UHGV virus genome: UHGV-1347344
Origin: a virus
DNA: 45,900 nt
Strand: one strand, 5' to 3'
Part shown: piece after piece, positions 14,174 through 42,368 of the stretch
Layout: each line of letters opens with the position of its first letter
Numbering within the stretch: the first letter of the stretch is position 1
The notes under the pieces: model-generated
The model's input: only the letters and a program-made list of their open reading frames with translations
What the model was told of the DNA's origin: nothing
The model's database searches: none
Position numbers and translations under genes: made by a program

Positions 14174-14226
14174 CGCTGCACCTCCATAGTGTTTTGGAGA
14201 TGATGCAGCATGGCGGCGTGGGGGCA

Positions 14227-14244
14227 CACCGTGAACAAGGTTCG
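14227..14244 (-). promoter_or_regulatory. late-promoter element copy 2, upstream of antirepressor
   Basis: CGAACCTTGTTCACGGTG; CATCAT 21 nt downstream; then GGAGGTG and the ATG at 14173. Confidence 0.55.
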
Positions 14245-14347
14245 TACAGGCAAAAGAAAAGCCCCTTTCGGGGCGGAGGGCGGCGGCGGTGGATTTTTGG
14301 AACGGCCTATGCCATGATAGCCTCATCTATAATAAGGGGGATGATGT

Positions 14348-14947
14348 ATGGCTACCTACATCAAGTTTCTGGCAGGGGACTACGGGAAAGAAGAATATAT
14401 TTACATTAAGAATAAAAACAAGTTGCGTTGCTCTTCAAAAATGTTTGGAGCAAAGGAACTTTTTCTTTCCAGTATTGCCTCTTGCGAAGTAGCCAATGAA
14501 GAATCGGTCAAAAAGCTCGGCGGAACTTTGGGAGGCGCACTTGTCGGCGGCGTCTTGCTTGGAGGCATCGGAGCGGTTGCGGGTGCGGTAGCTGGAGGCA
14601 AGACGACTGAGTCTACCGTCATTATTGAGTTCAAAAATGGAAATAAGGCATTGGCAAAGGTGAATAGCCCCATGATGGAGGTTATCCGCGCACACCTTTT
14701 TGATGACCAATTGGCCCAAGAGCGTGGAGAACCAAACCCGCTTATACATCATGAACGTTCTCAGACGCCCCCTAAAAAAATTGCCCTTATCATTGGAGTG
14801 CTGATAACAGTAGTGCTAGCCGTATTGTGGCTGAGTTGTGCCCTCCAAACGCCGCCCAATACGAATGGGGCCTTGTTATGGGGAATCCTCACTATCCTTT
14901 CCGGACTGTATTCTTGGAAAACCTATAAGAAAATATATAAATCTTAA
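14348..14947 (+). CDS. glycine-zipper membrane protein (hypothetical)
   Basis: 199 aa with GGTLGGALVGGVLLGGIGAVAGAVAGG (GxxxG zipper) and two C-terminal TM helices. AT-rich codon usage. RBS AAGGGGGA. Confidence 0.5.
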   Translation: MATYIKFLAGDYGKEEYIYIKNKNKLRCSSKMFGAKELFLSSIASCEVANEESVKKLGGTLGGALVGGVLLGGIGAVAGAVAGGKTTESTVIIEFKNGNKALAKVNSPMMEVIRAHLFDDQLAQERGEPNPLIHHERSQTPPKKIALIIGVLITVVLAVLWLSCALQTPPNTNGALLWGILTILSGLYSWKTYKKIYKS

Positions 14948-14982
14948 TATATTAACTTGAATCCGAACAGGGAGAGAGGACC

Positions 14983-15363
14983 ATGGATTTTTCGGAAAGA
15001 ATTGCTGAATTGTCGAAAGTAGAGATAGAGTCCGAAGATACCCCACAAGGAAAAGAGCTGGATTCGCGTATAGTCACCACCGAGGAAGAAAAAGAGGCGT
15101 ATTACCTTGTCAAATCGCTTCTGGTGGGCACCGTTGATCCGGCCCGCGTAGCCATGCGGGACAGCATCAGCTACTGCTCCATCCTTCTTGACGACAACAG
15201 GCTCAAGCCTCTGTGCCGCCTGTATTTCAACGGAAAACAGTGGAGGGTCGGACTGTTTGATGGGGAGAATAAAGACGCAAAGGAAGACATCGAAAAACTG
15301 GAAGATATTATCCCCTTTGCGGATCGAATCCGGGCTACGGCCTTGAAATACGATAACAAGTAA
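14983..15363 (+). CDS. hypothetical acidic cytoplasmic protein
   Basis: 126 aa with RBS GGAGAGAGGA; part of the AT-rich cargo island. Confidence 0.5.
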   Translation: MDFSERIAELSKVEIESEDTPQGKELDSRIVTTEEEKEAYYLVKSLLVGTVDPARVAMRDSISYCSILLDDNRLKPLCRLYFNGKQWRVGLFDGENKDAKEDIEKLEDIIPFADRIRATALKYDNK

Positions 15364-15714
15364 AACTTTCCAACGTGGCGTTGCCCGCCAATGATGAAGA
15401 ACATCCAGATGCGGGCAATGCCACTGCTTTTCTCTTTACATTTTCCGAGTTTTGTGCTGTCTTTTGTGCACGGGCTTCAGAACCCCGTAGGCGGACAAAC
15501 GCCACCCGATAGCATGGCGCTTTTTTATGCCCTTTTTCCAAAGTCAAGAGTTTTTCTTGGCTGTCTTTTGGGCTATTATTGCATCCAATGTTTGCCGGGT
15601 GTGGCGGATATGTCCAAGCGAAAGCTAAAGGCCGCCAGCGGTTCCTACGCCGTTCTGAACACCCGGCGCTTTCTATTTCAGAGAGTGCAATTCAGACAAC
15701 GTAGGAGTTGCATT

Positions 15715-16386
15715 ATGGAAATGGCCCTAATCTTCAACGAATTTATCTTCACGCCTGTCACTCACCAAAACAGTCTCTGGATTCGTTCTTCTGAATTGGC
15801 TAAAGCACTTGGCTATTCCGACGACCGCAAGGTTGGTGTGCTCTATGCCCGACATAAGGATGAATTCTCCAATAATATGAGCGTGGTTCTCAATTTGAGT
15901 ACCACGGATGTACCCGCTATGAATCGCATCTTTTCCCTTCGGGGCTGCCATTTGGTTGCGATGCTAGCGCGTACTCCTATTGCCAAGGCGTTCCGCCGTT
16001 GGGTGCTGGATGTGATTGAACAGTACGGCGACAGGGTGCCCGTTGCCGAACCCGTGACGCTCAACGACGAGCTGATCAGTGCGGCGGAACGTGCCGAGCT
16101 CAAGCTCATCGTAGACGCCAAGCTCTCGACATACCCCGCAGCCGTGCAGGGCAAGGCCCGCGCCGAGATATGGGCGAAGCACAACCGCCACTTCCGCATC
16201 GCGGAATACAGTCAGCTCCCGGCCAGGCTTATGCCCGAGGCCCGCGAGTTCCTGCTTTCCGTCCGCGTCCGCGCCATCAATGCCATACCCACGGCGGAAT
16301 CCGCGATTCCGTACCCTGCGCTTCCCGTCGCATCGTCACTATACCGCGACCGCGTGAGGGAGCTTGAACGGCTCGAACAGGATTAG
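15715..16386 (+). CDS. BRO-N domain protein (antirepressor-like), start refined
   Basis: ATG at 15715 follows AGGAG. Product MEMALIFNEFIFTPVTHQNSLWIRSSELAKALGYSDD... matches BRO-N. The upstream part of the 331-aa track ORF is non-coding-looking. Confidence 0.6.
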   Translation: MEMALIFNEFIFTPVTHQNSLWIRSSELAKALGYSDDRKVGVLYARHKDEFSNNMSVVLNLSTTDVPAMNRIFSLRGCHLVAMLARTPIAKAFRRWVLDVIEQYGDRVPVAEPVTLNDELISAAERAELKLIVDAKLSTYPAAVQGKARAEIWAKHNRHFRIAEYSQLPARLMPEAREFLLSVRVRAINAIPTAESAIPYPALPVASSLYRDRVRELERLEQD

Positions 16387-16635
16387 ATGGAACTTGCAGT
16401 CCTGATCCGCGACCGCGCTTATGGACTGGAACGAGACTTCCGCCGAGTGACGCAAGGAACGTATCCCGAACTGCTCCGGCATGTATCGCCATCCGGGAAG
16501 ACGCCCGTTGACGCGCTTATCCAGCTCATGACAGCCCCAACCTACACCGCCCGGCAAAACCTCGAATCCGCGCTTGATGATATACGTCTTGCCATCCGTG
16601 CCGCGAAGACGGCAAACAGGTTGATGCTAGGGTAA
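16387..16635 (+). CDS. hypothetical protein
   Basis: 82 aa, abutting the stop of the BRO-N gene. Confidence 0.4.
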   Translation: MELAVLIRDRAYGLERDFRRVTQGTYPELLRHVSPSGKTPVDALIQLMTAPTYTARQNLESALDDIRLAIRAAKTANRLMLG

Positions 16636-16651
16636 TCCTTGGCAAGCCTAC

Positions 16652-17002
16652 ATGAATCATATAAGACTTTACCAACGGAGGGATTCCCCCATGCTGCTGT
16701 TCGATGATGGGAAAAAGCTTGAAAAGGCCGTCGGCGAGGAAGCCGCAAAAGCCATCGTGGAAGTACTGGAACGCTTTGACGAGAGTCAAAGGAACGCCAG
16801 TGCCACCAAGGGAGATCTGCGCGAAACGGAACTGCGGTTGCAAAAAGAAATTCGGGAATTGGACCTGAAAGTGCAAGCGGAGATCGAAAAAATTCGTGCT
16901 GAAGTGTTGAAGGTCAAGTATGATCTTTTGAAATGGCAAATCGCCATAGGGTTTGCCCTTGTCGCAGTTATGGCCAAGGGCTTCGGCTGGCTCGGATTCT
17001 AA
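16652..17002 (+). CDS. coiled-coil protein with C-terminal TM helix (XhlA / DUF1640-like)
   Basis: 116 aa; heptad-rich LRETELRLQKEIRELDLKVQAEIEKIRAEVL followed by WQIAIGFALVAVMAKGFGWLGF. Followed by a terminator. Confidence 0.45.
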   Translation: MNHIRLYQRRDSPMLLFDDGKKLEKAVGEEAAKAIVEVLERFDESQRNASATKGDLRETELRLQKEIRELDLKVQAEIEKIRAEVLKVKYDLLKWQIAIGFALVAVMAKGFGWLGF

Positions 17003-17022
17003 TAAAGAAAGAATATCGTAGA

Positions 17023-17060
17023 AAAGGGGTGGCTTTAAGAGCCGCCCCTTTTTGTTTTTC
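17023..17060 (+). terminator. rho-independent terminator
   Basis: aaggggtggct-ttaa-gagccgcccctt stem followed by tttttgttttt. Confidence 0.7.
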
Positions 17061-17102
17061 TGCCTCTCCCTTCTGTTACTGACGAGTTAAAAAAGATAAA
17101 AC

Positions 17103-17147
17103 TTTTTTGAAAAAATTGTTTATTTTTTCAAAAAATGGTGCTATTGT
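17103..17147 (+). promoter_or_regulatory. cassette promoter: 33-bp palindrome (TTTTTTGAAAAAAT-tgttt-ATTTTTTCAAAAAA) plus extended -10 TGcTATTGT
   Basis: Perfect 14-bp inverted arms at 17103..17116 and 17122..17135. TGCTATTGT at 17139..17147. RBS AAAGGAGAG precedes the ATG at 17181. Confidence 0.55.
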
Positions 17148-17180
17148 ATTTTCAACGAAAGGGACAAAAGGAGAGTTCTC

Positions 17181-17537
17181 ATGATAACCATCACCACAGC
17201 CAACAACGAAACAACTCTTGAAAACGACAAGGCTTTCTGTGCATATCGTATCGAAACAGAAATCGATTTTGATGAAGATGGTTATGAAGTGGACGGAGAG
17301 CAATATGTGCTCATCGAAAAGCTTTTTGTTCCCTCAGAAAATCGCGGAAACGGCATTGCCCGCCGCCTTCTTCGTGAAGCCGTCTCTCACGCTCGCGCTA
17401 CTTACCCCAGAATGGCGATTAGGTTGGTAGCTGAACCTCTGGATGCCGATACAGATATGGATCGGCTGGTGGCCTTTTATGAAAGCGAAGGTTTTGATGT
17501 GATCGAAGCTGGCGAAATCGTAGTCATGGAACACTAA
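17181..17537 (+). CDS. small GNAT-family N-acetyltransferase
   Basis: 118 aa with acetyl-CoA binding motif A (LFVPSENRGNGIARRLL). Confidence 0.6.
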   Translation: MITITTANNETTLENDKAFCAYRIETEIDFDEDGYEVDGEQYVLIEKLFVPSENRGNGIARRLLREAVSHARATYPRMAIRLVAEPLDADTDMDRLVAFYESEGFDVIEAGEIVVMEH

Positions 17538-17557
17538 ACAGAACAAAGGAGTAAGAC

Positions 17558-17728
17558 ATGACCCGCTATTCTATCCTGCTCACGACTGGCACAACGGGAA
17601 CCATCGATACCGAACAGCATCTTGAAGAGGGCATGGAAGTAGTCATTACCTTGCACGATGAAAACGGAAACAGAACGCAGGAAACCGGACTCATCGCTGA
17701 AATTCTTGACGAAGAATTTTTAGGGTAA
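17558..17728 (+). CDS. small hypothetical protein (56 aa)
   Basis: Strong RBS AAGGAGTAAGAC before ATG. Product MTRYSILLTTGTTGTIDTEQHLEEGMEVVITLHDENGNRTQETGLIAEILDEEFLG. Below the ORF-track size cutoff. Confidence 0.5.
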   Translation: MTRYSILLTTGTTGTIDTEQHLEEGMEVVITLHDENGNRTQETGLIAEILDEEFLG

Positions 17729-17750
17729 TCGAATTAAAAGGAAAAACACC

Positions 17751-18251
17751 ATGAAGCTATACCACGGAAGCATGATTGAACATCTGGCTATCTCTAACTC
17801 AGGAACAGGGTTAGGGTATAACTTCGGAGCGATGTTCTTTGCCCGTACTTACGGACATGCAAAGGAATACGGAAATTACGTCTACCAGTGCGAAATAGAC
17901 ATCAAGGACATCTTCTTGAACGAGGATCTCCCGTATCTTGAAGATGGCGCTGCTGGAACGGCTCTACGTGAAGTTATGGCAGAGCGCGGTATAGACGAAA
18001 AGTATTTTGATCTCTGCTGGTATGCCGTGGTTGAAGAGAAAATTGGTTATCAAGATGAAGACTGGGTAAACCTCCTCAACATGGACGACGATGACGCAAG
18101 TTGGGAGGCTCAGGCCATGCGGATCGCCTTTGCCCGTAAGCTTGGATTTAAAGCTGTGGAGATGGATGACGAATGCGGCAGCATTGCGGTTCTTCCCGAG
18201 TTCATAAAGCTGGAAGCGTCAACGGAGGAGGACGATGAAGAGGAAGACTAA
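17751..18251 (+). CDS. minimal PARP-like (H-Y-E class) ADP-ribosyltransferase domain protein with polyacidic C-terminus (putative)
   Basis: N-terminus KLYHGSMIEHLAISNSGTGLGYNFGAMFFARTYGHAKEYGNY parallels PARP catalytic LWHGSRTTNFAGILSQGL...[20 protein letters not shown] (H-G-S, then GYxFG..YFA, then Y). Candidate catalytic Glu in CWYAVVEEK. C-terminus STEEDDEEED. Confidence 0.45.
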   Translation: MKLYHGSMIEHLAISNSGTGLGYNFGAMFFARTYGHAKEYGNYVYQCEIDIKDIFLNEDLPYLEDGAAGTALREVMAERGIDEKYFDLCWYAVVEEKIGYQDEDWVNLLNMDDDDASWEAQAMRIAFARKLGFKAVEMDDECGSIAVLPEFIKLEASTEEDDEEED

Positions 18252-19626
18252 GATAGACATCGACGATCTTATCGATTTCAGTTCAAAGCTGGTGAACTCG
18301 AATTCCAGCATCGGTATTCGCTTGTCGTCGGGTGCCGCGCTCTCCCTTCCGTACCTGTCCACGAGGACATGTCTTGCGGCAGGGATTTCTATGCCGCTGG
18401 ATACGGCAAACGGGGCCAAGGATGTGGGAAAAGTAAGTGCTCTATACAAAACACTCGAAGAGGGGGAGGAAGGAGAGAAAGCAGATACAGAGGCGGCATT
18501 GAAGAAAATCCGTAAAACAGGATTTGCTAGAAAAACAGAGTCTGTCGACAGACGGATTCGTCAACTGCTCATTCCTAAAGACGTACCCTCTGGGTATGTC
18601 TCTTTGTCTCCCCTCCCCTCCATTGGACTTTCCGTTTTGCTGTTAGGAGCCGTTACAAGGCATAATCAAGATGTCTTTTCAAAAAAGAAGGAAGGTATCA
18701 AAATTCGACGGGCACATCTCGCTTTGGGCGGGGCAAACCCTCAGAATCTAGGATACGCTGCGTCCAAAAAGGCGATACAATATCCTATTTTTCTTTCTAC
18801 ACCCAAATCCGTGCGCGGAAATGCCAGCCGTCAGGCGTCAGGAAAGGGAACTTACCTGATCCTTTCCAATCTCTTTGTGCAAACGGCAAACATCTTGACG
18901 AATTATACTATGCTCAACGGCGCGCCCCTCTTTGCAGCATGGGGGATGGGACATGCACTGGAGCGCGAGATGCATGGTCCCAAGGTTACCGGAGTATGCC
19001 TTGTTGTGCATAGCATCGAACCCCTTGGGGAGCATGAAACCGCTATTTTCGAGCCTAGCCAAAGATTAGGAGCGGCTTTTACTTTTGAAAAATCCCGTAA
19101 CGGGAGCGACTACGCAAAAGGCTCCACACATCTCTCTTTGCAGCCCGGTGCAACGGGGCATATACGGGTAAGCCTTATCTTTGAACTGTCGGAAGCCCTG
19201 CATTCCGTACCGAACGCCGTGGATCTTTTCTTGAACTTCGGAAAGTTCTCCGGTGGGCTGATCACTTCATACGACGCCCCGGCTTTGCATGATGACCGCT
19301 CTACGCTTCTAGAGTGCATTCCCGCCGGGAAAGTTGTTTTGGATCGGCGCGACGTTATGAGTCCTGGAAACCCCATTGAACAGCTTGTAACCGCGATAGG
19401 AACGTACAGCGGAAAATGGCTGTCCGCAACGAATATCGGTTTTTCAGCAATCACAGACTTTCAAGTTCGCGGAGGGGCACGGAACGGACATCTTCATGCC
19501 TTTGCCGAGCCGCTGATCGGCATTACAGAATACGTCTCTACTGAAAAGAGGATACACGGGTATTTCTGGCGCAGCCAGTGGGAAGAAGATAGCTTTTTGA
19601 TGAGGGGAGATTCAACAAATGAATGA
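18235..19626 (+). CDS. 463-aa protein of unknown function (partner of the ART-like gene)
   Basis: Overlaps the upstream gene by 17 nt and the downstream gene by 8 nt (operonic). No P-loop, HEPN, nuclease or macro motif recognised by eye. Confidence 0.65.
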   Translation: MKRKTKIDIDDLIDFSSKLVNSNSSIGIRLSSGAALSLPYLSTRTCLAAGISMPLDTANGAKDVGKVSALYKTLEEGEEGEKADTEAALKKIRKTGFARKTESVDRRIRQLLIPKDVPSGYVSLSPLPSIGLSVLLLGAVTRHNQDVFSKKKEGIKIRRAHLALGGANPQNLGYAASKKAIQYPIFLSTPKSVRGNASRQASGKGTYLILSNLFVQTANILTNYTMLNGAPLFAAWGMGHALEREMHGPKVTGVCLVVHSIEPLGEHETAIFEPSQRLGAAFTFEKSRNGSDYAKGSTHLSLQPGATGHIRVSLIFELSEALHSVPNAVDLFLNFGKFSGGLITSYDAPALHDDRSTLLECIPAGKVVLDRRDVMSPGNPIEQLVTAIGTYSGKWLSATNIGFSAITDFQVRGGARNGHLHAFAEPLIGITEYVSTEKRIHGYFWRSQWEEDSFLMRGDSTNE

Positions 19627-19840
19627 TGCACAAGAAAAAAAGCAGGGTGGACGCCGTAAAGGATCTGGACGTAAAAAAAGGGTTGAAAATCGTGCAACAG
19701 TAAAGACTGTATCTATGCCGGATCATGTCTGGGAACGGCTGAACGATGTATGTACGGATAGGGGTATCCTACGCTCACAGGTAGTACGGGAAGCAGTCGA
19801 GATGTGGCTGGACGCAAATATACAGCAGCTTGGAAAATGA
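19619..19840 (+). CDS. ribbon-helix-helix (CopG/Arc-like) DNA-binding protein
   Basis: 73 aa with a basic N-terminus, beta-strand ATVKTVSMPDHVWERL then helices SQVVREAVEMWL. Last gene before the terminator. Confidence 0.6.
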   Translation: MNDAQEKKQGGRRKGSGRKKRVENRATVKTVSMPDHVWERLNDVCTDRGILRSQVVREAVEMWLDANIQQLGK

Positions 19841-19857
19841 CGCCTGATACGTAAAGA

Positions 19858-19893
19858 AAGCCCCAACCGTTAAACAGGCGGTTGGGGCTTTCG
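19858..19893. terminator. bidirectional rho-independent terminator between convergent cassette and capsid operon
   Basis: Perfect 10-bp stem gccccaaccg / cggttggggc with a 9-nt loop, flanked by A-run and T-run. Confidence 0.75.
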
Positions 19894-19912
19894 CATGGAG
19901 GGAAGGATGGGA

Positions 19913-20926
19913 CTAGGCTCCAGTCATTTGCGCAAAGGCAAAGGGCATGAGCACGATACCGCCGTAGGTGGTGCCGACGAACTTCTGACGGAAGCTGGAC
20001 AGGTCGGGCACGACGCGTCCGGCACGCATCTTTTCTCCGAAGGCCAGCGTGCCGGATCGCTGCCCGTTCACTTCGGGGGCGATGAGGAACATGTTTTCCC
20101 CGGCGGTCATGCTGTGCAGCTCGGGGACGGTCACGATGTCAATGCGGGTGAAGTACCGCTTCAACATATCCAGCACGGACACGTTGAAATCGGTAGCCGC
20201 GCCGAGGCGAACGGCCAGTTCGGGGGAGAGGCAGAGCTTGAGGGGCGTGTCTTTGTCAATGAGGCCGCTGGACTGCTCGGAAAGCTGCGCGAACAGGATG
20301 AGGACGTCATTGTAGATCTGCACCGTGGTCTTGTCGGCCCATTTCGTGGAGCCGCCCGTGCCCGTGGCCCCTGCGGTGATCGCAGCAGGGAGGTTCGGAT
20401 CGTTAAGGATGCCGTAGATTTCCTTCCCGGCGACTCCGCGCAGGTAGAAACGGTTCTGGTCGATGTCGATGACGTTGGCGGCCGCACGCTGCTTGGAGGC
20501 AGCGAGGTTGACTTTTGCCGTGCTCGACATGTCCACTTCAAAGTCGCCGTAGGTGATGGACGTCTGGAAGACGTACTGCACGCGGGTTTGCCATTCGGAG
20601 TTCACGCCCGAAGTCGTGCCGTTGGCATAGTCGGAATACGGCTCGGTCTTTCCGGTCATTTCGTCCACGCGCCACTTCATGTACGGGGTCGTCCAATCGC
20701 CCTTCTTCTCTTCACCGAAGATTTCACGGGCGCGCCGGGGCGCGGTCAGGATTTCGATGACCATCGGGTCGATATACGCCAGAAGCTCGGCGGGGACGGT
20801 CGTGTTCGGAGTAGTGATGAGCGCGGCGTCCTGCGCAATGCGGGCGCGGTTCTCCGGAGTTGCCCACATGCGGGCGCCCGGGAAGATAAAGCCGTAGCGC
20901 TTGGCCTGTTCAAAAGTCGGATTCAT
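19913..20926 (-). CDS. major capsid protein
   Basis: 337 aa, downstream of the scaffold/protease and decoration genes; lambda E-like size. Confidence 0.7.
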   Translation of the reverse strand: MNPTFEQAKRYGFIFPGARMWATPENRARIAQDAALITTPNTTVPAELLAYIDPMVIEILTAPRRAREIFGEEKKGDWTTPYMKWRVDEMTGKTEPYSDYANGTTSGVNSEWQTRVQYVFQTSITYGDFEVDMSSTAKVNLAASKQRAAANVIDIDQNRFYLRGVAGKEIYGILNDPNLPAAITAGATGTGGSTKWADKTTVQIYNDVLILFAQLSEQSSGLIDKDTPLKLCLSPELAVRLGAATDFNVSVLDMLKRYFTRIDIVTVPELHSMTAGENMFLIAPEVNGQRSGTLAFGEKMRAGRVVPDLSSFRQKFVGTTYGGIVLMPFAFAQMTGA

Positions 20927-20936
20927 GTAGTACCTC

Positions 20937-21575
20937 CTACGCTCCGGCGGCGGCTGCGCCGAGGTTGGTGCGGGCCTGTTCCGCAGTGGTTGCGCCAGTT
21001 CCGCCGTTGGCCACGCCGAGCGCTCCGGTGGCGTTGCTGAAATCTTTCTGCATCAGGTTCGAGGTGTCGCCGCCGGATCCCGACGCTGCGGCCTGTCCCC
21101 AATTGCTGATGATGATCGGTTCCCCGATTTCGCCGGGCGTCTTGACGACCCACCCCGTATCGAGGTGCGTGGCGTCGGGGGTCCCGGTGCTGATTGAACC
21201 GTCAGCGGTGGAGGCAAGGACGGCCTGCCCCACCGTGGCCTTGGTCGTGGAAACGGCCCAATAGTCGCCCTTCACAGCCACGGTGAGGTTCGAGCCTGCC
21301 GGGACAGTCAGGGTGCCGTCAGAAAGCAGTTCATAGTTCACGTAGTTGATGACGCGCTCCACGAAGCCGAGCACGGCTGTGGCGGTGCCCGCGACGTTGG
21401 TGGCCCGCGTGTTGTCGATCACGCCGGAATCCACGACAGGGAAGACGAAGCGCCCCACAGGGAGGGCCACCGCCGCCAGAGGGTTGAGCGGGGTGTAGAT
21501 GCTCTGGTCGGGCGTCGCTTTATCGCCCGCAACGCCGGGAGCGACGGAAAGATTGACTTGGGACTGCAAAGGCAT
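20937..21575 (-). CDS. head decoration / head fibre protein, start refined
   Basis: ATG at 21575 preceded by AGGAGG. C-terminus GALGVANGGTGATTAEQARTNLGAAAAGA is a fibre-type motif. Sits between the scaffold and capsid genes. Confidence 0.5.
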   Translation of the reverse strand: MPLQSQVNLSVAPGVAGDKATPDQSIYTPLNPLAAVALPVGRFVFPVVDSGVIDNTRATNVAGTATAVLGFVERVINYVNYELLSDGTLTVPAGSNLTVAVKGDYWAVSTTKATVGQAVLASTADGSISTGTPDATHLDTGWVVKTPGEIGEPIIISNWGQAAASGSGGDTSNLMQKDFSNATGALGVANGGTGATTAEQARTNLGAAAAGA

Positions 21576-25982: not shown

Positions 25983-26729
25983 ATGTACAAAAGCATCATG
26001 GTGTTTTTGCTGGCCGCGCTAGTTATGACGTCCGAGGCGCAGGCCGCGGGCAACGAATGGAACGATTCGTTCAGCAAGGCCAAAAAAACGTTGGAGCGAC
26101 AAATCTATCATGACCACCGGATCACGCTCTACTGCGGGGCGGCGTTCGACGAGAAGAAGAACGTCACCCTCCCGGAGGGTTTTACTGCCGCGAAGCACGA
26201 GAAGCGGGCCGGGAAGGTGGAATGGGAACACGTGGTCCCCGCCGAGAACTTCGGGCAGGCGTTCGCGGAGTGGCGCGAGGGCGACGCGCAGTGCGTGGAC
26301 AACAGGGGAAAGGCGTTCAAAGGCCGCAAGTGTGCCGAGAAGGTCAATAAAGACTATCGGTACATGCAGGCGGACATGTACAACCTGTATCCGGCCATCG
26401 GCGCGGTGAATGCCCTACGCCAGAACTACAACTTTCAGATGTTGCCGGGCGAGGAGCCGGACTTCGGAAGCTGCGGGATGAAGATCGCCGACCGCAGGGC
26501 CGAGCCGCCTATCAGAGCGAGGGGACAGATTGCCCGGACCTACAAGTATATGGCCGACGCCTATGCCCCGCGCTACCGCATGAGCCGCCAGCAGACGCAG
26601 CTCATGGACGCATGGGACAAGATGTATCCGGTTGATGCGTGGGAATGCACGCGGGCCAGACGTATTGAAAGACTACAAGGTAACGAGAACCCTTTTGTGA
26701 AGGAAAGATGTCAAGAAGCAGGACTCTAA
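25983..26729 (+). CDS. endA: secreted endonuclease I (EndA/Dns/Vvn family periplasmic-extracellular DNase)
   Basis: Signal peptide MYKSIMVFLLAALVMTSEAQA followed by the Endonuclease_1 pattern (…YHDHRITLYCGAAF…WEHVVPAENFG…DMYNLYPAIGAVNALR…). Opposite strand to the flanking packaging genes. Confidence 0.75.
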   Translation: MYKSIMVFLLAALVMTSEAQAAGNEWNDSFSKAKKTLERQIYHDHRITLYCGAAFDEKKNVTLPEGFTAAKHEKRAGKVEWEHVVPAENFGQAFAEWREGDAQCVDNRGKAFKGRKCAEKVNKDYRYMQADMYNLYPAIGAVNALRQNYNFQMLPGEEPDFGSCGMKIADRRAEPPIRARGQIARTYKYMADAYAPRYRMSRQQTQLMDAWDKMYPVDAWECTRARRIERLQGNENPFVKERCQEAGL

Positions 26730-26743
26730 CTATTTACATTCAT

Positions 26744-28213
26744 TTATATTCTCCTTCCCATACGTGGATGATTGAGGATGGCGGGGTTGATGCACATAGG
26801 CCGCTTGGTATCGAAATCACGCAGCGCCTGTGTTGTGGCGTCCACTTGGTCGTCGTGGGGCGCACCGGGGAACTGTGTCAGTTCCGCGACGTACTCCCGC
26901 GCCCACGGGCAATGCTCAGGGTGCGGGAGCAGGACGTTCCCGGCCTCGAAGAACGTGGTCACGGCATGGGCCCGGGCCGTCTTGCTGCCGTCCGGCTCCA
27001 CGGGGATGATACCAGGCACAGCATGTTTCAGCGCGTCGATAACCGCCGGGCCGTTGGCCTTATCCTCCACCAGCTTACGGGCTGCGCCGGGCCATTTAGC
27101 GGCGAGCGCCCGGAACGCGGCGACCGTATCCGTAAATCCCATGCGCCGCCGGACCTGATCGAGGAGGTAGCGGTCGGCCCCCTTGCGGCCCCACACCTGC
27201 CCCACAACAAAGTCGGTATCGTCGCCGTCCTTGAACGTCATATCCCACGAGATAAGGAGCTGGTCGAACTGCTCTGGCAGATCTTTGGGGAGCCAGAAGC
27301 GCAACCACTCGGATTTGAAAATGGCGCCGCCGTCTGGCGTAGGCCGCTGCTGGTACAGGGCCTCCCAGTCGCGTGTGCCGAGGGCTTTCTTAATGGCAAG
27401 GAGCTGGCTCAGCGGGTAACGTTCCGGGTGCAGGGCTTCCCCGGCCTTACGATGTGGCTCGTCCGCCGTGGCGATGGCAGGGAAGTCCACCACACGCCAG
27501 TGGTCGCCCTCCCCCCGTGCGGCGGCCTCAAGCAGCCGCCCGGAAAGGTCGGCCATGTGCCAGCGCGTATTGATAATGAGAACCCCCCCGCCGGGCGCGA
27601 GGCGCGTGTACAGCGTGGACGTGTACCAGTCCCAGACGTTCTGGCGGATGGTCGGGGAATCGGCGGATGCCCGGTCTTTGAATGGGTCATCGACGATGAC
27701 GATATGCCCGCCCATGCCCGTGATGCCGCCGCCCACGCCAGCGGAACGGTAGCATCCAGCGTGCCCCACTACCTCGAATATATCTGAGTTGCGGAGGTAG
27801 GAACCGTTCCCCACGGTGCGGATGTTCTTGCCGTACAGCGCCGTGCCGGGAAAGAGTTCCCGGTATTCCGGACTGTCGATGACGCGCTGAACGTCGCGGT
27901 TCATGCGCGAGGACAGGTCGGCGGTGTAGCTCGTGGAAATGACGGATAGATCGGGATAGCGGCCCAAGGCGTAAGCCGGGAAGCGGCGCGAGGCGAGCTC
28001 GCTTTTCCCGTGGCGCGGGGGCATGGTCAGCATGAGGCGCGGGGAACGCCCGGCTACGACATCTGCAAGGAAAGCGTCAAGCTCGGAACAGATTTCCTCA
28101 TGCACCCATCCCATGCAGTAGCCGGGCATGGTGTAGCGCACGAAGGCCGCGAGACAGCTCCGGGCCAGCGCACAACGAATTTCAGCAAGCACCTCACCCG
28201 TCATTCCTCTCAT
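26744..28213 (-). CDS. terminase large subunit
   Basis: 489 aa. ATPase region TMPPRHGKSELASRRFPAYAL (Walker A-like) then a nuclease domain. Preceded by terS. Confidence 0.85.
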   Translation of the reverse strand: MRGMTGEVLAEIRCALARSCLAAFVRYTMPGYCMGWVHEEICSELDAFLADVVAGRSPRLMLTMPPRHGKSELASRRFPAYALGRYPDLSVISTSYTADLSSRMNRDVQRVIDSPEYRELFPGTALYGKNIRTVGNGSYLRNSDIFEVVGHAGCYRSAGVGGGITGMGGHIVIVDDPFKDRASADSPTIRQNVWDWYTSTLYTRLAPGGGVLIINTRWHMADLSGRLLEAAARGEGDHWRVVDFPAIATADEPHRKAGEALHPERYPLSQLLAIKKALGTRDWEALYQQRPTPDGGAIFKSEWLRFWLPKDLPEQFDQLLISWDMTFKDGDDTDFVVGQVWGRKGADRYLLDQVRRRMGFTDTVAAFRALAAKWPGAARKLVEDKANGPAVIDALKHAVPGIIPVEPDGSKTARAHAVTTFFEAGNVLLPHPEHCPWAREYVAELTQFPGAPHDDQVDATTQALRDFDTKRPMCINPAILNHPRMGRRI

Positions 28214-28598
28214 TCTCTTTAAAAGCCTCCCGCGTCAGCTTAAGCAATTCATCGGAGGAAAGATGGGAAAGATCAAGTGCTGGTGCAGGCGACATCGTTC
28301 TATCAGAACTGGAAAGATCAATTTTTTGAATCTCTCGCCATCCCATACGAGTCTTTGCCCAGAAAATAAGAGCGGTTGTGTCACCCGACATAGCTTTGTC
28401 GAAGAGCCGCTTTCCAACTTTCACATTAGCGTTGGTTCTTCCTGTGATAAGCTCCTGCTTATAGAGCTTCACCATCGTATCAACAGACATACCAATCTTT
28501 GCTGCGATTTCATCTTGCGGTACTCCGTATTGAGCCATTGCCTCAACAAGCGCCGCCTTTGTTCCAGATCTTTTTATCGCAGGTCTACCACCGCTCAT
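28194..28598 (-). CDS. terminase small subunit (HTH)
   Basis: 134 aa overlapping terL by 20 nt. HTH-like AAKIGMSVDTMVKLYKQ. Confidence 0.6.
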   Translation of the reverse strand: MSGGRPAIKRSGTKAALVEAMAQYGVPQDEIAAKIGMSVDTMVKLYKQELITGRTNANVKVGKRLFDKAMSGDTTALIFWAKTRMGWREIQKIDLSSSDRTMSPAPALDLSHLSSDELLKLTREAFKENERNDG

Positions 28599-29542
28599 AG
28601 AACGCCTCCGAGCAGGTTGATGTAGTACGGAATCGTTAGTTCAAGCCCCTCATCCAAGCTCGTTGTCGGCTTGAATCCCAAAAGAGCGGACGCTTTTCCA
28701 ATATCAGGAACGCGCCGCGTGGGGTCGTCGTCAGGAATGGGCCGGAATACGATTTTTGATGACGACCTGACTTTTTCGATTATAGTCTTGGCAAGCTCCA
28801 AGATCGTGATTTCTTCGGGGTTTCCAATATTTACCGGACCCGTGATATGACTATCCGACTCCATCAGCCGGACAATCCCTGATATCGTATCGCGCACAAA
28901 ACAAAACGAGCGTGTCTGAGAACCATCCCCGTATACGGTTATATCCTCACCCCGCAAGGCTTGGCAGATGAAGTTAGGAATAACCCGACCATCGTTTATC
29001 GACATCATGGGGCCGTAGGTGTTGAACAGACGCACAACCTTAACCTTGATCCCCTCTTCCCGGTAAAAGTCGAAGAAGAGACTTTCTGCGCAGCGTTTCC
29101 CCTCATCGTAGCAGGCTCGGATGCCGATGGGGTTGACGTTGCCTCTATCAGTCTCTCGCTGAGGCGAAACTAGTGGCTCGCCATATACTTCTGATGTGGA
29201 TGCCTGCAAAACCGTCGCACCATGTACCTTGGCAAGCTCCAGTATATTCAATGCCCCAAGTACGCAGGTCTTTGTAGTCTGAATTGCATTTTTGCCCTGA
29301 TAGTTTAAAGGGCTTGCTGGACATGCGAGATTGTAAATTTCGTCTATATGCTCAGAAGCCTCAAAAGGAGAACAAATATCATGAAGAAAGAACTGAAAGT
29401 TTTTGAGCCGATTGGGGATATTATTAATATTTCCGGTTGAAAGATCGTCTATGCAGATAACCTTGTGTCCTTTTTTAAGCAATTCCCTGCAAAGATGTGC
29501 TCCTAAAAATCCGGCACCACCTGTTACGAGACTTGTTTTCAT
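28595..29542 (-). CDS. uxs: UDP-glucuronate decarboxylase (UDP-xylose synthase family SDR)
   Basis: MKTSLVTGGAGFLGAHLC…NYQGKNAIQTTKTCVLGALNILELAKVHGATVLQASTSEVYG…NPIGIRACYDEGKRCAESLFFDF…VRLFNTYGP closely parallels UXS/ArnA-C (GxxGxxG, YxxxK). Low GC. Confidence 0.85.
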   Translation of the reverse strand: MKTSLVTGGAGFLGAHLCRELLKKGHKVICIDDLSTGNINNIPNRLKNFQFFLHDICSPFEASEHIDEIYNLACPASPLNYQGKNAIQTTKTCVLGALNILELAKVHGATVLQASTSEVYGEPLVSPQRETDRGNVNPIGIRACYDEGKRCAESLFFDFYREEGIKVKVVRLFNTYGPMMSINDGRVIPNFICQALRGEDITVYGDGSQTRSFCFVRDTISGIVRLMESDSHITGPVNIGNPEEITILELAKTIIEKVRSSSKIVFRPIPDDDPTRRVPDIGKASALLGFKPTTSLDEGLELTIPYYINLLGGVL

Positions 29543-30408
29543 GAATCCGCCTTTTGGTATCGAGGGGAAAGGATTTTGGGCGTGCAGTGATTCCAAGAGA
29601 TTTTATGGTGGTATCGCATATACGTATCTTTGAGCGTCGATATTTTCACAGCAGATGGGCACATCATGACAGTATAAAAACTTTTCATATATGTACCATT
29701 TTCAAGATACATATCGGTCAGCCCACCAGCTTGAGATTGTGTCTCAGCTTGATTGATGCACGTATTCCCGAACGAGAAAAACAGCTTGCCCCGATGCCCC
29801 AGAGTGACATACGTGTTAACGTCATCATTCATACGTCCAACGAACTTGAAAGGGCGTAATGTCTTGCAAAAAAACGCGTTCATGGCTTTTCGTTTCACAG
29901 CCAATTTGGGGGAATCAATAGCCCCACCAATGAAATCGCCATTCTGCATAAAGCAGACGCTTAAAGATGGAGTTCTTTCTAAAAAATCTAGATAGGCATC
30001 GAAGACATCATCGAGGCATTGTGGGTATACATATTTCAAGACGCCATCTTTTGCATATCTGTGCTGGAACGAGTCATAATCATCGTCAAGTTCTAAGAAA
30101 AAATCGAGTCCCAAGCCCTCGGCTATTTTGTGACACATATTTCTAGCAAAAAGGACCGTATTTTTCTTCTGGATATTATCACCACGATCAGTAAATCGTG
30201 CTGCATCTTCCTTACAAAAGCGGATCACTTCTTTACCATACCGACGAATATATTCATCACCTGTCGTATCTTCATCATCAATAATGAGGTAAATGGGGCC
30301 TGTATATCCATGCTTTCGGAGTGAACGATATGTTTGCTGATTCTGAGGGCGTCCATACGTAAGTATAAAGCAAGCAAATTTTTCATGCCTCATCGTTCTT
30401 ATCCTCAC
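29539..30408 (-). CDS. putative glycosyltransferase (DxD-type)
   Basis: 289 aa with FILTYGRP and LELDDDYD motifs. 4-bp overlap with the uxs-like gene; AT-rich. Confidence 0.45.
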   Translation of the reverse strand: MRIRTMRHEKFACFILTYGRPQNQQTYRSLRKHGYTGPIYLIIDDEDTTGDEYIRRYGKEVIRFCKEDAARFTDRGDNIQKKNTVLFARNMCHKIAEGLGLDFFLELDDDYDSFQHRYAKDGVLKYVYPQCLDDVFDAYLDFLERTPSLSVCFMQNGDFIGGAIDSPKLAVKRKAMNAFFCKTLRPFKFVGRMNDDVNTYVTLGHRGKLFFSFGNTCINQAETQSQAGGLTDMYLENGTYMKSFYTVMMCPSAVKISTLKDTYMRYHHKISWNHCTPKILSPRYQKADS

Positions 30409-30685
30409 GGATTAAGGCATCTCGAAGTTCATCTATCTGGGAAGAGAGCTCAACAAACCCGTTTTCAATCGCATTATCAATGTCGATGATAACAAGGGCT
30501 GACTGCTCCATAAGTCGCTGCATTTCAGGGGATGCGTTTGCGTAGTACTCTGCGATGTTCTCGTAGTTGAAAACCGTATGCCGATGAGCAGCCGCGAGAA
30601 GAAAGGCTTTTTCTTTCGGAGAAACGGTTGAGTCATGAATGGCCTTTGGCGAGTTCATTATCCTTTGTCTGGTCGTACAGTTCAT
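30383..30685 (-). CDS. hypothetical protein
   Basis: 100 aa, first gene of the low-GC sugar moron; start uncertain. Confidence 0.35.
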   Translation of the reverse strand: MNCTTRQRIMNSPKAIHDSTVSPKEKAFLLAAAHRHTVFNYENIAEYYANASPEMQRLMEQSALVIIDIDNAIENGFVELSSQIDELRDALIREDKNDEA

Positions 30686-31154
30686 CTACGCAAACAGATC
30701 TACCCGTAGGCTCATATATGGGGGTTGTGGCTTTCGCTGTGTACTTATCTTCTACGGGAACATCTTCTTGGGGCTCGAAAAGCTCAGCCTCAAAACCGAT
30801 AAGATCAGTATCAAAATCGGCTAGTTTGAGCTCTTCAAGCTCAAGGGCCAAAAGTTCGTTGTCCCATTCAGCCCAGTTTGCGGACTGATTGGCAAGCAGT
30901 CGAAAAGCCTTGACTTGAACATCACTCAACTCGTCGGCAAGAGCCACAGGGACATCTTTCAAGCCGAGTTTCTGAGCTGCTTTCAGGCGCAGATGTCCAT
31001 CAACGACGGTGCCATCGGACTTAGCGACAATGGGGATACGGAATCCGAACTCCCGGATGGCCGCACACATACGATCAACCTGCGCATCATTTTTGCGCGG
31101 GTTCCTTGCGTAAGGTATCAATCGCTCAATAGGCCATTGCTCGACATTCAGCAT
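30633..31154 (-). CDS. ParB-like nuclease domain protein
   Basis: 173 aa, IERLIPYARNPRKND…VVDGHLRLKAAQKLG (ParB N-terminal / sulfiredoxin-like fold). Confidence 0.65.
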   Translation of the reverse strand: MLNVEQWPIERLIPYARNPRKNDAQVDRMCAAIREFGFRIPIVAKSDGTVVDGHLRLKAAQKLGLKDVPVALADELSDVQVKAFRLLANQSANWAEWDNELLALELEELKLADFDTDLIGFEAELFEPQEDVPVEDKYTAKATTPIYEPTGRSVCVDELYDQTKDNELAKGHS

Positions 31155-31173
31155 TTTTATAGTTCCGAAAAAG

Positions 31174-31449
31174 TTACAGCGTAAAGAACTTCATAATGAG
31201 CGCGCCGAGGCTGCCGGCCGCAGCAGCCACGCCAGCAAGGACGGACAGCCCCCCGGCGCGCTTATTCTCGGCAGCTTCAAGCGCGGCGATACGGACATCC
31301 AGTGCTGCGAGGCGCTTGCCGTGATCCTTGAGCTGCGTAATCACGATGTCGTCGAGGCGCTGGTTGGTGCCCGCGACTTCGGCCTTGAGCCCGGAAAGCT
31401 CGGCCTTCACTTCCCCGATCTCGCGGACAAGCTGCACGTCGTCGTTCAT
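31174..31449 (-). CDS. XhlA-like lysis-associated coiled-coil membrane protein
   Basis: 91 aa: coiled coil plus C-terminal TM (GLSVLAGVAAAAGSLGALIMKFF), inside the lysis cassette. Confidence 0.45.
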   Translation of the reverse strand: MNDDVQLVREIGEVKAELSGLKAEVAGTNQRLDDIVITQLKDHGKRLAALDVRIAALEAAENKRAGGLSVLAGVAAAAGSLGALIMKFFTL

Positions 31450-31769
31450 CTCCCAGCCTCAACGCTCTTGATCCACAGGAGCAGGTTCCCGGCCTCTCCT
31501 GCGGGCAGGTGCACCCACTCGCCGGGCTCGGTGAACGTCTCGCCCCGGTAGGTGTAGGACCACTCACCCGTCACGACGGCCCCCGGCGTCAGAGGAGCCG
31601 GGCTTGTCACGGTGGTCGGCGCCGCCACTGTGCTGCACCCACTCGCCGCCAGCGTCATCACGAACAGCAGCGCGATCAGCCTCGCGGCGTTCGCCGTACC
31701 GTTGACGCAGCCACAGCTTGAGGAGCCCGGCGAGCGATGAAAGGAACTCAAGGACGGCCCGCACATCAC
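31446..31769 (-). CDS. lipoprotein (possible o-spanin-like lysis component)
   Basis: Lipobox LAASGC; true start probably internal or non-ATG. Confidence 0.4.
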   Translation of the reverse strand: MMCGPSLSSFHRSPGSSSCGCVNGTANAARLIALLFVMTLAASGCSTVAAPTTVTSPAPLTPGAVVTGEWSYTYRGETFTEPGEWVHLPAGEAGNLLLWIKSVEAGR

Positions 31770-32056
31770 TTCCCCGTCACGGCCTTGACTTCGGCCTTCA
31801 CGGTTTCGGACTTGCCGTCAGCCACGGCACCCCTATTCTGCCCAAAGTGTGCGGCAAGGGCGTGCGTCCAGCGGTAGAAGACGGCATAAAGCCCGGTCAG
31901 TTCCTTCGGCACGGGCATCCATACGGTGGCCACGGCGCACAGGCCGCACACGGTCATGACCACGCTCAGGGCGGTGACGAGCCACGCCGCATCGGGGTAC
32001 TGCGCGGAAAGGCCCATCAAGGTCGAAAGGATGAAATCAATCACGGTCGCTTCCAT
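31766..32056 (-). CDS. holin-like 2-TM membrane protein, start refined
   Basis: ATG at 32056 overlaps the endolysin stop (TGATG). Product MEATVIDFILSTLMGLSAQYPDAAWLVTALSVVMTVCGLCAVATVW…. Confidence 0.5.
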   Translation of the reverse strand: MEATVIDFILSTLMGLSAQYPDAAWLVTALSVVMTVCGLCAVATVWMPVPKELTGLYAVFYRWTHALAAHFGQNRGAVADGKSETVKAEVKAVTGK

Positions 32057-32442
32057 CAGTACTTGCCTCCATGCTGGTAAAAGGCCACGTCGCGCGGCTT
32101 GTCGGGGTCGTTGTCCACATGGATCCACGTTGGGGCCAGCTCGATGCGCCGGAATCCGACTTCAAGCAGGGCTTGCAGCATGACGAAACGGGAATGGGAA
32201 TCCACGCAGCGGATATCCACGGCATAGCCGCGAGTGTGCGCGGAGGTGGGCACGCCGCCGACCGCCTTGTTGTGCTTCGGGCAGCGGTAGGCGGAAGAAA
32301 GGGGGAACGGGATACCCGCCAGATCACGGGCCTCATCGAGCATCTGGAGCAGATCGGCGTCCATCTTCTCCATGCCCGCGCCGCACCCGCACTTGCAGCG
32401 GAATTCGACCGGGGAGAAGTGGCGCAAGGGAAGAACAGCCAT
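32056..32442 (-). CDS. endolysin, peptidase M15 (L-Ala-D-Glu / D-Ala-D-Ala carboxypeptidase-like)
   Basis: ATG at 32442 preceded by AGGAGG. FSPVEFRCKCGCG… and SAHTRGYAVDI metal-site motifs. Confidence 0.7.
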   Translation of the reverse strand: MAVLPLRHFSPVEFRCKCGCGAGMEKMDADLLQMLDEARDLAGIPFPLSSAYRCPKHNKAVGGVPTSAHTRGYAVDIRCVDSHSRFVMLQALLEVGFRRIELAPTWIHVDNDPDKPRDVAFYQHGGKY

Positions 32443-41843: not shown

Positions 41844-42368
41844 ATGAACTCAACGCCACAAATTCTTGATCCCTGTTGCGGTGGAAAAATGCTTTGGTTC
41901 AATAAAAATGATCATCGTGCTGCATTTTGTGACAGCAGACGAGAAAAGCATATACTTTGTGACGGAAGAGTTTTTGAAGTGAATCCAGATACGGTATGCG
42001 ATTTTCGCAAGTTACCCTTTCCTGACGAATCCTTTTTTCTTATTTGCTTCGATCCTCCACACCTCTTGCAAGCGGGAGAAACGTCTTGGATAAAGAAAAA
42101 ATATGGAAGCCTTAATAGGCTAACGTGGAGCGAAGACTTGTCGAAAGGGTTCGACGAATGCTGGCGCGTCCTCAAGCCCGGAGGGACGCTGATTTTCAAG
42201 TGGAACGAGACTCAGATCAGCTTGCGCGATGTGCTTTCCTGCTTTTCAAGACGCCCAGTTTTTGGACATACGACAACGAAACGCCGAGACACGCACTGGA
42301 TGACTTTTTACAAGGAAGCCGCTCGCGAGGCCGTGGAGGAAGGAGAAGAATCATGCCCGAAGAACTGA
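41844..42368 (+). CDS. small SAM-dependent methyltransferase (DPPH motif; putative DNA N6-adenine/N4-cytosine MTase class)
   Basis: 174 aa with ILDPCCGGK (motif I-like) and FLICFDPPHL (motif IV-like DPP[YFH]). RBS GGAGG. Confidence 0.45.
   Translation: MNSTPQILDPCCGGKMLWFNKNDHRAAFCDSRREKHILCDGRVFEVNPDTVCDFRKLPFPDESFFLICFDPPHLLQAGETSWIKKKYGSLNRLTWSEDLSKGFDECWRVLKPGGTLIFKWNETQISLRDVLSCFSRRPVFGHTTTKRRDTHWMTFYKEAAREAVEEGEESCPKN

Follow-up and report, generated by a model that had tools for sequence, protein, structure and literature searches.

A ParB-coupled TAGT-family glycosyltransferase and a putative UDP-xylose synthase in front of the terminase genes of a temperate phage: a possible route to late DNA xylosylation

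We analyzed a 45,900-nucleotide stretch of the viral genome UHGV-1347344 (the window; all coordinates are positions within it), focusing on a low-GC cassette in front of the terminase genes. The cassette encodes a ParB-like protein, a glycosyltransferase (GT) and a predicted UDP-glucuronate decarboxylase/UDP-xylose synthase (UXS). The window covers nearly all of ENA contig ERZ807456 NODE_2 (45,955 bp), spans tail genes to integrase and appears to be a temperate phage genome that is close to complete. All cassette genes lie on the minus strand, where the order is an M15 endolysin, three small membrane proteins, an open reading frame (ORF) with a ParB_N domain, a 100-aa ORF, the GT, the UXS, the small terminase subunit gene (terS) and the large terminase subunit gene (terL). 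A preliminary description had grouped three of these minus-strand ORFs (28595-29596, 29539-30408 and 30383-30685 in the ORF list) as a three-gene moron. A megablast search with 26700-31200 against 50,697 phage records gave no match.

The GT gene (29539-30393) encodes 284 aa from ATG 30393, which is the likely true start; the ORF itself reaches a GTG at 30408. The protein matched the Pfam family TAGT (PF20691) over residues 12-229 (124.8 bits, cut-off 27.5, E = 6e-36) and phrog_842 (E = 3e-61). The PF20691 annotation was shared by 120 of 120 listed homologs, and NCBI names phage GTs of this family 'GREB1-related protein'. We observed a GT-A fold in the AlphaFold model (pLDDT 88.8) by its Foldseek matches in the PDB, which include the peptide/protein glycosyltransferases ppGalNAc-T, SunS and ThuS. 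Among viral models, the best matches were TAGT proteins (TM 0.85), and the T-even beta-glucosyl-HMC-alpha-glucosyltransferase was also matched (TM 0.67, E = 1e-9). Residues D39, D42 and D103-D104-D105 were invariant in 44 sequences, and the DDD triplet corresponds to the acidic DxD metal/nucleotide-sugar motif. The GT is basic (pI 8.6), similar to the 120 listed homologs (median 8.57). Hydropathy analysis gave no transmembrane-like segment in the GT, the UXS or the ParB pieces (KD maximum ≤1.36), and no signal peptides were seen in them. PADLOC returned no defense-system match for the GT or the UXS, and a genome-contig scan with the GT returned distant relatives only (42-51% identity). We assign the GT as a soluble GT-A enzyme of the TAGT family, in agreement with its first description as a DxD glycosyltransferase.

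The UXS gene (28595-29542) encodes 315 aa from ATG 29542, again the likely true start; the ORF reaches a TTG at 29596. This short-chain dehydrogenase/reductase (SDR) aligned with human UXS1 (2b69, 4gll) over 306 residues with 323 bits (E = 2e-95), whereas its best match not deposited as a UDP-glucuronate decarboxylase scored ~130 bits. Epimerases and dehydratases scored 130 bits or less and ArnA ~65 bits. Pfam matched the protein to Epimerase and GDP_Man_Dehyd, and the NCBIfam models stayed below their cut-offs and did not discriminate the SDR subtype. The motifs GGAGFLG, STSEVYG, YDEGKR and DDPTRR line up with those of UXS1. As in UXS1, these would supply the GxxGxxG NAD site, the catalytic Thr/Glu of TSE, the Tyr-x3-Lys of YDEGK and the C-terminal Arg. 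These data point to an enzyme of the UDP-xylose synthase type, as had been proposed. No Ugd gene was found in the window, and UDP-glucuronate must therefore come from the host. UXS-like genes were rare among phage records, with 10 of 50,697 (E < 1e-30). Three of the ten were considered as potential analogues and set aside: L090 and L092 resemble bacterial polysaccharide loci, and tblastn found neither TAGT nor ParB in L090 or L091.

We observed that the 100-aa ORF (30383-30685), which had been counted as a gene of its own, covers positions 155-215 of phrog_620. The 173-aa ORF upstream (30633-31154), missed in the preliminary description, covers positions 7-132 of the same family (E = 1e-41). 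This upstream ORF also matched phrog_498, a ParB-DNA methyltransferase family (E = 1e-41), Pfam ParB_N (PF02195; 27.9 bits, cut-off 26.3) and the N-terminal part of the PADLOC Type II MTase model (E = 5e-32). Its N-domain is most similar to ParB domains fused to phage DNA methyltransferases. Three related IMG/VR contigs (L002, L003 and L004; 83-99% protein identity) carry one continuous ParB gene of ~256 aa. Alignment and direct reading showed one extra A in the window gene (GCCAAAGG compared to GCCAAGG in L002-L004), in the AAA at 30645-30647. The whole gene, split in the window, occupies 30383-31154; its C-terminal domain is read out of frame in the 100-aa ORF, where ParB homology by phrog_620 and tblastn runs from ~30646 to 30383. 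The '100-aa protein' is therefore the C-terminal piece of a split ParB/Srx-like gene and no separate gene. A single ParB ORF of ~250 aa formed the second most widespread cluster of the related loci (71 loci, ORF clustering), and ParB is annotated as one coding sequence in Salmonella phage SPF_0923 and in Lactobacillus phages c5 and jlb1. Programmed frameshifting was considered and rejected: the site has no slippery heptamer, relatives are plainly in frame, and other relatives carry different lesions.

A structure model of an intact homolog (P0121) showed a confidently modeled N-domain of the ParB-CTPase fold (residues 1-126), a disordered linker (127-144) and a helical C-terminal domain. Its Foldseek matches were Noc, ParB, PadC, KorB and sulfiredoxin (Srx). 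G53, H54 and R56 were invariant, and we read them as the GxxR nucleotide-binding motif. We found no helix-turn-helix (HTH) domain in the ParB-like protein by Pfam scan or in the structure model, and no ParA among the scanned ORFs of the window. It is not a partition protein of the canonical kind, which combines a centromere-binding HTH domain with a ParA partner. In the window, the 173-aa ORF retains the nucleotide-binding domain and the linker and stops inside the C-terminal domain. The frameshift sits in helix 163-174 of that domain; neither fragment therefore holds the complete domain.

ParB has been hit three separate times in this lineage. In addition to the window frameshift, a near-identical phage (L095, 72-788) carries another frameshift near residue 189. 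In another near-identical relative (L094, 1-3295), a clean deletion of 1285 bp corresponds to window positions 30716 to 29430, and the C-terminal end of ParB, the entire GT and the start of the UXS gene (5' end) are gone. Because this deletion variant occurs naturally, we conclude that the cassette is accessory, dispensable and occasionally lost. The intact allele is by far the commonest (46 sequences are members of P0121, and the collection indexes P0123 in 224 blocks). The cassette of the window genome is probably impaired through its ParB frameshift. We put even weight on a stronger statement that would fit any acceptor hypothesis, namely that this copy is a decaying, non-functional remnant whose GT and UXS are heading for loss. 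The three lesions argue for it, as does a ParB-dependent dioxygenase that needed both ParB domains (PMC13229309). Set against this, both the GT and the UXS retain an intact ORF, with ~92-99% identity to their counterparts in relatives whose ParB is intact. Contig coverage is 179x, and a minority intact allele or an assembly error could still be present. Both ParB fragments might also be produced, as an AGGA is found 2 nt ahead of ATG 30658, and could come together again.

The AT-richness reported for the three ORFs was reproduced, with a GC content of 0.48 for the UXS, 0.42 for the GT and 0.46 for the 100-aa ORF compared to 0.57 in the rest of the window. The low-GC island extends further, from 28194 to 31154 (GC 0.461 versus 0.570 elsewhere in the window), and also takes in ParB (0.50) and terS (28194-28598; phrog_309, E = 4e-16; GC 0.47). 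The interval of 28595-30685 first given for the element does hold the three ORFs, but it left out the ParB-like gene and terS. Since the low GC also covers terS, the mobile unit comprises ParB-GT-(accessory/UXS)-terS and is not a three-gene moron. At the downstream end of the operon context, terL (26744-28204; Pfam Terminase_6N and 6C) has a GC of 0.64, which is normal for the phage.

Direct reading showed start/stop overlaps behind the translational coupling that had been noted on both sides of the UXS. One ATGA couples GT to UXS at 29542-29539, and another couples UXS to terS at 28598-28595; the ParB stop lies 8 nt past the GT start. Directly upstream of ParB is a lysis cassette (31174-32442, minus strand, by gene calls) with the M15 endolysin (32056-32442; Peptidase_M15_3) and the three small membrane proteins (31174-32056; hydropathy maxima 2.0-2.2). 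One of the latter contains the sequence LAASGC, which we read as a putative lipobox. Each junction between the minus-strand genes from 32442 to 26744 either overlaps or has a gap of at most 20 bases. A consensus scan gave no promoter-like site on the minus strand and a lone weak terminator-like hairpin, inside terS. Because the genes form a one-strand run of overlapping or near-abutting genes with no minus-strand promoter-like site and this single weak terminator-like site, late co-transcription of the cassette with the lysis and packaging genes, as first suggested, is plausible.

We scanned IMG/VR with the GT, obtained 146 relatives and kept 80 loci for context analysis. A ParB C-terminal segment was detected upstream of the GT in 78 of these 80 viral contigs (tblastn), and the gene 3' of the GT was usually terS, an HNH endonuclease or terL. 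The terminases beside the module differ, with three terL clusters and at least two terS clusters; a terS homologous to that of the window follows the GT in 25 loci. The ParB-GT-terminase order was also observed in Lactobacillus phages c5 (where the pair forms the first two genes past the cos site) and jlb1, and in lambdoid E. coli and Salmonella phages. In Haloarcula virus HHTV-2, ParB and GT are adjacent.

Among 5426 complete E. coli genomes, 1580 carry the Salmonella-phage version of the ParB-GT pair, 889 of them at a coverage of 80% or more. In E. coli it is annotated as ynaK (ParB/Srx family) plus a GREB1-related protein, with the lysis genes/trkG on one side and terS on the other. E. coli PF9285 (L093, 7001-8717) carries this pair, which is that of Rac-type lambdoid prophages. 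It is the same two-gene module as in the window (GT ~44% identical), likewise between lysis genes and terS, but it lacks a UXS and has trkG inserted upstream. The short ynaK of K-12 would be a remnant of such a ParB-TAGT module. Overall, the core of the cassette is a widespread, conserved ParB/Srx-TAGT pair located before the terminase genes in unrelated phages, and only the UXS is lineage-specific. This does not fit the idea of a three-gene moron.

A UXS behind the GT was observed in the window lineage only (L002-L004, L095-L099 and P0123-type contigs). This lineage is a Bilophila/Desulfovibrio phage group, as indicated by protein names (Desulfovibrio sp. An276, uncultured Bilophila). The intact ParB-TAGT-UXS-terS cassette was found again in many Bilophila-type phage contigs. 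In a Desulfovibrio sp. An276 prophage (L005), the ParB, GT and terS genes are likewise AT-rich (GC 0.41, 0.30 and 0.47 versus 0.55-0.58 in the flanks). Elsewhere the accessory slot holds other genes. In 23 of the 80 loci (L016, L038, L040, L047 and others), a histidine-phosphatase plus cytidylyl/adenylyltransferase fusion of ~320 aa lies between ParB and GT; this gene was considered as a dioxygenase and rejected in favor of the fusion. The nucleotidyltransferase part is TagD/RfaE-II-like, and the fusion suggests that a phage-made NDP-sugar or NDP-polyol, possibly of heptose or glycerol phosphate, serves GTs of this family as donor. Other loci have a methyltransferase there, a CofD-like protein paired with a GlmU-like nucleotidyltransferase, or a further TAGT, which in one case has a radical SAM enzyme behind it.

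Our reading of the cassette is a late, ParB-assisted xylosylation of phage DNA before packaging, which we hold tentatively and rate somewhat short of even. The UXS, with ~323 bits to UXS1 and conserved catalytic residues, would turn host UDP-glucuronate into UDP-xylose. The TAGT enzyme, judging by its family, gene position and timing, would move the pentose onto replicated phage DNA shortly before or during packaging. The ParB-like protein may act as an activator of the GT or as its DNA-engagement partner, by analogy with ParB-dependent thymine dioxygenases and ParB-DNA-methyltransferase fusions. The benefit would be counter-defense: restriction and other immunity directed at DNA would meet a sugar coat that varies. 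In this scheme we infer the donor sugar, DNA as the acceptor and the role of ParB.

Virion proteins, phage DNA and the host surface had all been offered as targets at the outset. DNA is favored here by the GT family and its structural neighbors, and by the near-obligate ParB/Srx partner, whose N-domain resembles the ParB modules of DNA methyltransferases. It is also favored because the module keeps a fixed place before the packaging genes whatever the terminase type, because the hosts that carry it have unrelated envelopes and DNA is the acceptor common to them, and because the sugar-nucleotide slot is exchangeable. The scheme also draws on the UXS identity, the close coupling within the late operon, the basic pI of the GT and its homologs, and the recurrence of the intact cassette in Bilophila-type phage contigs.

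The same GT family and fold also bear on a protein target. TAGT includes GREB1, a protein O-GlcNAc transferase (PMC7968844), the fold neighbors in the PDB include ppGalNAc-T, SunS and ThuS, no base-hydroxylating enzyme was found in the scans, and the operon layout predicts expression together with structural and packaging genes. The GT might thus modify a virion or packaging protein (capsid, portal or terS) or ParB itself, with the UXS feeding a late O-xylosylation. However, the linkage to ParB is near-universal while the terminase families vary, which leaves no single packaging protein as a conserved neighbor. In addition, the characterized phage TAGT members act on DNA (PMC13216743), and the viral structural neighbors of the GT are DNA glycosyltransferases. 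We consider a protein target unlikely.

The cassette could instead modify a small molecule or alter a glycan of the host, in the manner of seroconversion or of receptors being masked (TarP-like wall-polymer glycosylation would be an example), and its place in the late operon would then be incidental. The nearest cellular structural relatives of phage GT-A enzymes do include TarP and GT2 enzymes, and the island is AT-rich, horizontally acquired like morons and dispensable. We nevertheless find this reading very improbable. The module occurs in virulent phages (c5), the envelopes of its Gram-negative, Gram-positive and archaeal hosts are unrelated, its constant partner is a ParB/Srx protein, and its predicted expression is that of a late operon and not of a lysogenic-conversion gene. 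The GT, UXS and ParB also lack membrane segments and signal peptides. This sets them apart from GtrABC seroconversion modules, which consist of a membrane flippase, a bactoprenol GT and a serotype-specific membrane GT; the contrast had been drawn before and was borne out. The Pfam scans of the window returned no Gtr-type or other membrane-glycosylation family.

Several observations weigh against xylosylation of DNA. Scans with Pfam and PHROGs of essentially all plausible ORFs of the window gave no TET/JBP dioxygenase, no ThyA-type/thymidylate-synthase-like enzyme and no C5-methyltransferase. Such acceptor-making enzymes were also absent from the scanned non-structural proteome of the complete 31.8-kb Lactobacillus phage c5 and, by inspection, from the 30 most widespread neighbor clusters of the 80 loci. 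Most known pyrimidine hypermodifications, sugar ones included, go onto a pre-existing base hydroxyl (PMC13326640). The authors of a GT survey judged contigs without 5mYOX or ThyS (~65%) to be less obviously DNA-hypermodifying (bioRxiv 10.1101/2023.12.21.572611), and the eukaryotic TAGT member GREB1 glycosylates protein (PMC7968844). A literature search on ynaK gave no functional study. ParB is frameshifted in the window and independently damaged or deleted in relatives. Divergent phage dioxygenases can escape the Pfam model (PMC13229309), which also belongs among these points. Because of this, and as no phage-specific 5mYOX profile was run, the case for absence of an acceptor pathway is strong and not absolute, and a divergent dioxygenase could remain. 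The sole methyltransferase found in the window is small (41844-42365, plus strand; phrog_954, E = 1e-75) and lies in the early region beside the integrase. We read it from its DPPH motif as a putative DNA amino-methyltransferase.

Some related loci have neighborhoods that differ from that of the window. L102 (10001-13382) carries ParB-TAGT-TAGT and then a radical SAM enzyme; SAM synthetase, dUTPase and DUF5131 genes precede this block. In L100 (8162-11603) and L101, a C5 DNA methylase and an unannotated 169-aa ORF lie just upstream of ParB-TAGT; the C5 methylase of one related locus is located two genes upstream of ParB. The neighborhoods of L102 or of L100/L101 could conceal an acceptor-making step. 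Alternatively, ParB-linked solitary TAGTs may be self-sufficient DNA glycosyltransferases that need no hydroxyl or hydroxymethyl handle. ParB would then engage double-stranded DNA (dsDNA), and a canonical base or sites near the packaging signal would be glycosylated, with xylose in the window lineage. We regard this version as distinctly unlikely.

Known systems resemble the cassette in part. The TAGT of T2/T6 puts a second glucose on alpha-glucosyl-hydroxymethylcytosine (hmC) DNA (PMC13216743, PMC13390438). That enzyme, the beta-glucosyl-HMC-alpha-glucosyltransferase, shares with the window GT the Pfam family, the GT-A fold and the DxD motif, and both are phage-encoded, soluble and post-replicative. 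It extends glucose on 5-hydroxymethylcytosine (5hmC) that was made pre-replicatively, beside an alpha- or beta-GT. In contrast, the window phage has neither an hmC pathway nor an alpha-/beta-GT; its TAGT is solitary and paired with ParB, and it has a UXS partner instead of a reliance on UDP-glucose. Solitary TAGTs have been reported in 288 of 753 TAGT-bearing phages (PMC13216743). The name of the family goes back to its genomic association with TET/JBP, or with an alpha-/beta-GT and an hmC pathway.

In E. coli, phage GT-A enzymes that carry R...DDD...EDY/F motifs were shown to glycosylate 5hmC in DNA (bioRxiv 10.1101/2023.12.21.572611; these enzymes may or may not belong to TAGT), and one subclass strictly requires an adjoining sugar epimerase (same source). 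These clusters of a C5-methyltransferase, 5mYOX and GT (Pyle et al., bioRxiv 10.1101/2023.12.21.572611) resemble the cassette in subclass II, where the GT stands beside an SDR-type sugar-nucleotide enzyme that is the presumed donor supplier, and ParB and terminase genes were noted near such GTs. They differ in holding a C5-methyltransferase and a TET-like dioxygenase that make 5hmC, neither of which was found in the window, and in having an epimerase as the partner enzyme where the window has a decarboxylase (UXS). Their products are hexose, HexNAc, heptose and HexA; the words 'xylose' and 'pentose' are absent from the text of the paper. Kinetoplastid JGT is also a GT-A enzyme, whose R...DDD...EDY/F motifs were aligned by Pyle et al. 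with those of the phage DNA GT-A enzymes. JGT depends on 5-hydroxymethyluracil (5hmU) made by JBP, and GREB1, the likeness behind the NCBI name of the phage GTs, acts on a protein, ER-alpha.

The only documented pentose of phage DNA is arabinofuranose on 5-hydroxycytosine (5hoC), a modification that relies on a ThyA homolog and a route by way of ribulose-5-phosphate (PMC13326640). The arabinosyl-5-hydroxycytosine phages RB69, DLP3 and Thanatos (PMC13326640, PMC12838424) use phage GTs and a phage-made NDP-pentose. Unlike the pentose proposed here, their arabinofuranose does not arise via UXS; no counterpart of the ThyA homolog that makes their 5hoC was found in the window, and the GT families differ.

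The closest parallel for the ParB partner is the system of ParB-dependent thymine dioxygenases, where a phage enzyme of this type becomes active on dsDNA through a short ParB homolog that has no DNA-binding domain (O'Toole et al. 2026, PMC13229309). As in the window, that ParB is short, has nucleotide-binding and C-terminal domains without an obvious DNA-binding domain, and is encoded beside a DNA-modifying enzyme. GT, terminase and sugar-epimerase genes are among the commonest neighbors of these dioxygenase pathways (PMC13229309). The window ParB differs in that its partner is a GT and no dioxygenase was detected; activation by ParB is known for the dioxygenase and would apply here by analogy. 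According to another proposal, ParB guides the machinery of DNA modification while DNA is packaged (PMC8256090). Frequent phage fusions of the ParB-CTPase fold to DNA methyltransferases were reported in a survey that leaves glycosyltransferases unmentioned (PMC12704722).

We also noted features outside the cassette. A second low-GC island (14348-19840, plus strand; GC 0.46-0.50) lies between the tail and capsid modules and contains a Bro-N protein, a GNAT acetyltransferase, a weak ART-PolyVal-like ORF and a Cas8/5f gene; a second Bro-N protein is encoded just upstream (13385-14326, minus strand). The Cas8/5f gene (18235-19626, plus strand) encodes a 463-aa fusion of type I-F Cas8f (aa 10-193) and Cas5f (aa 208-453) (PADLOC E ~1e-20; Pfam Cas_Csy2). 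This is a solitary gene: the neighbors scanned gave no Cas5/6/7 match, and there is no repeat array in 14000-21200. It could be a decoy, an anti-CRISPR or a remnant. Between terL and the portal gene, on the opposite strand, lies an Endonuclease I family gene (25983-26729, plus strand), which looks to have an N-terminal signal peptide. It occupies the same spot in L096, L098 and L099, where the portal is lengthened to 757 aa with an LPD3 domain. In L097 (11429-13861), terL is 810 aa long with a weak Hint_2 (intein-like) match between the terminase N and C domains.

A gap has been pointed out in two recent papers, namely TAGT and other GT-A glycosyltransferases without an enzyme for the base that they are known to decorate. 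The window gives this gap a concrete form, with a ParB/Srx gene just upstream of the GT, a fixed place before the terminase genes and an exchangeable sugar-nucleotide slot. The TAGT family and solitary TAGTs were already known; what is new here is a solitary, ParB-coupled TAGT joined with a UDP-xylose synthase. The presence of the ParB-GT pair in 1580 of 5426 E. coli genomes makes the question testable in E. coli. If the target is not DNA, this is a very common prophage module with a function worth finding. If TAGTs prove to be self-sufficient, they would represent a new DNA-modification chemistry, also in Gram-positive and archaeal phages and, through the ynaK module, in a quarter of the complete E. 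coli genomes. If DNA is the target, a new DNA sugar, xylose, would be added to those known, and methyltransferase, dioxygenase and glycosyltransferase would all have a general adaptor in ParB.

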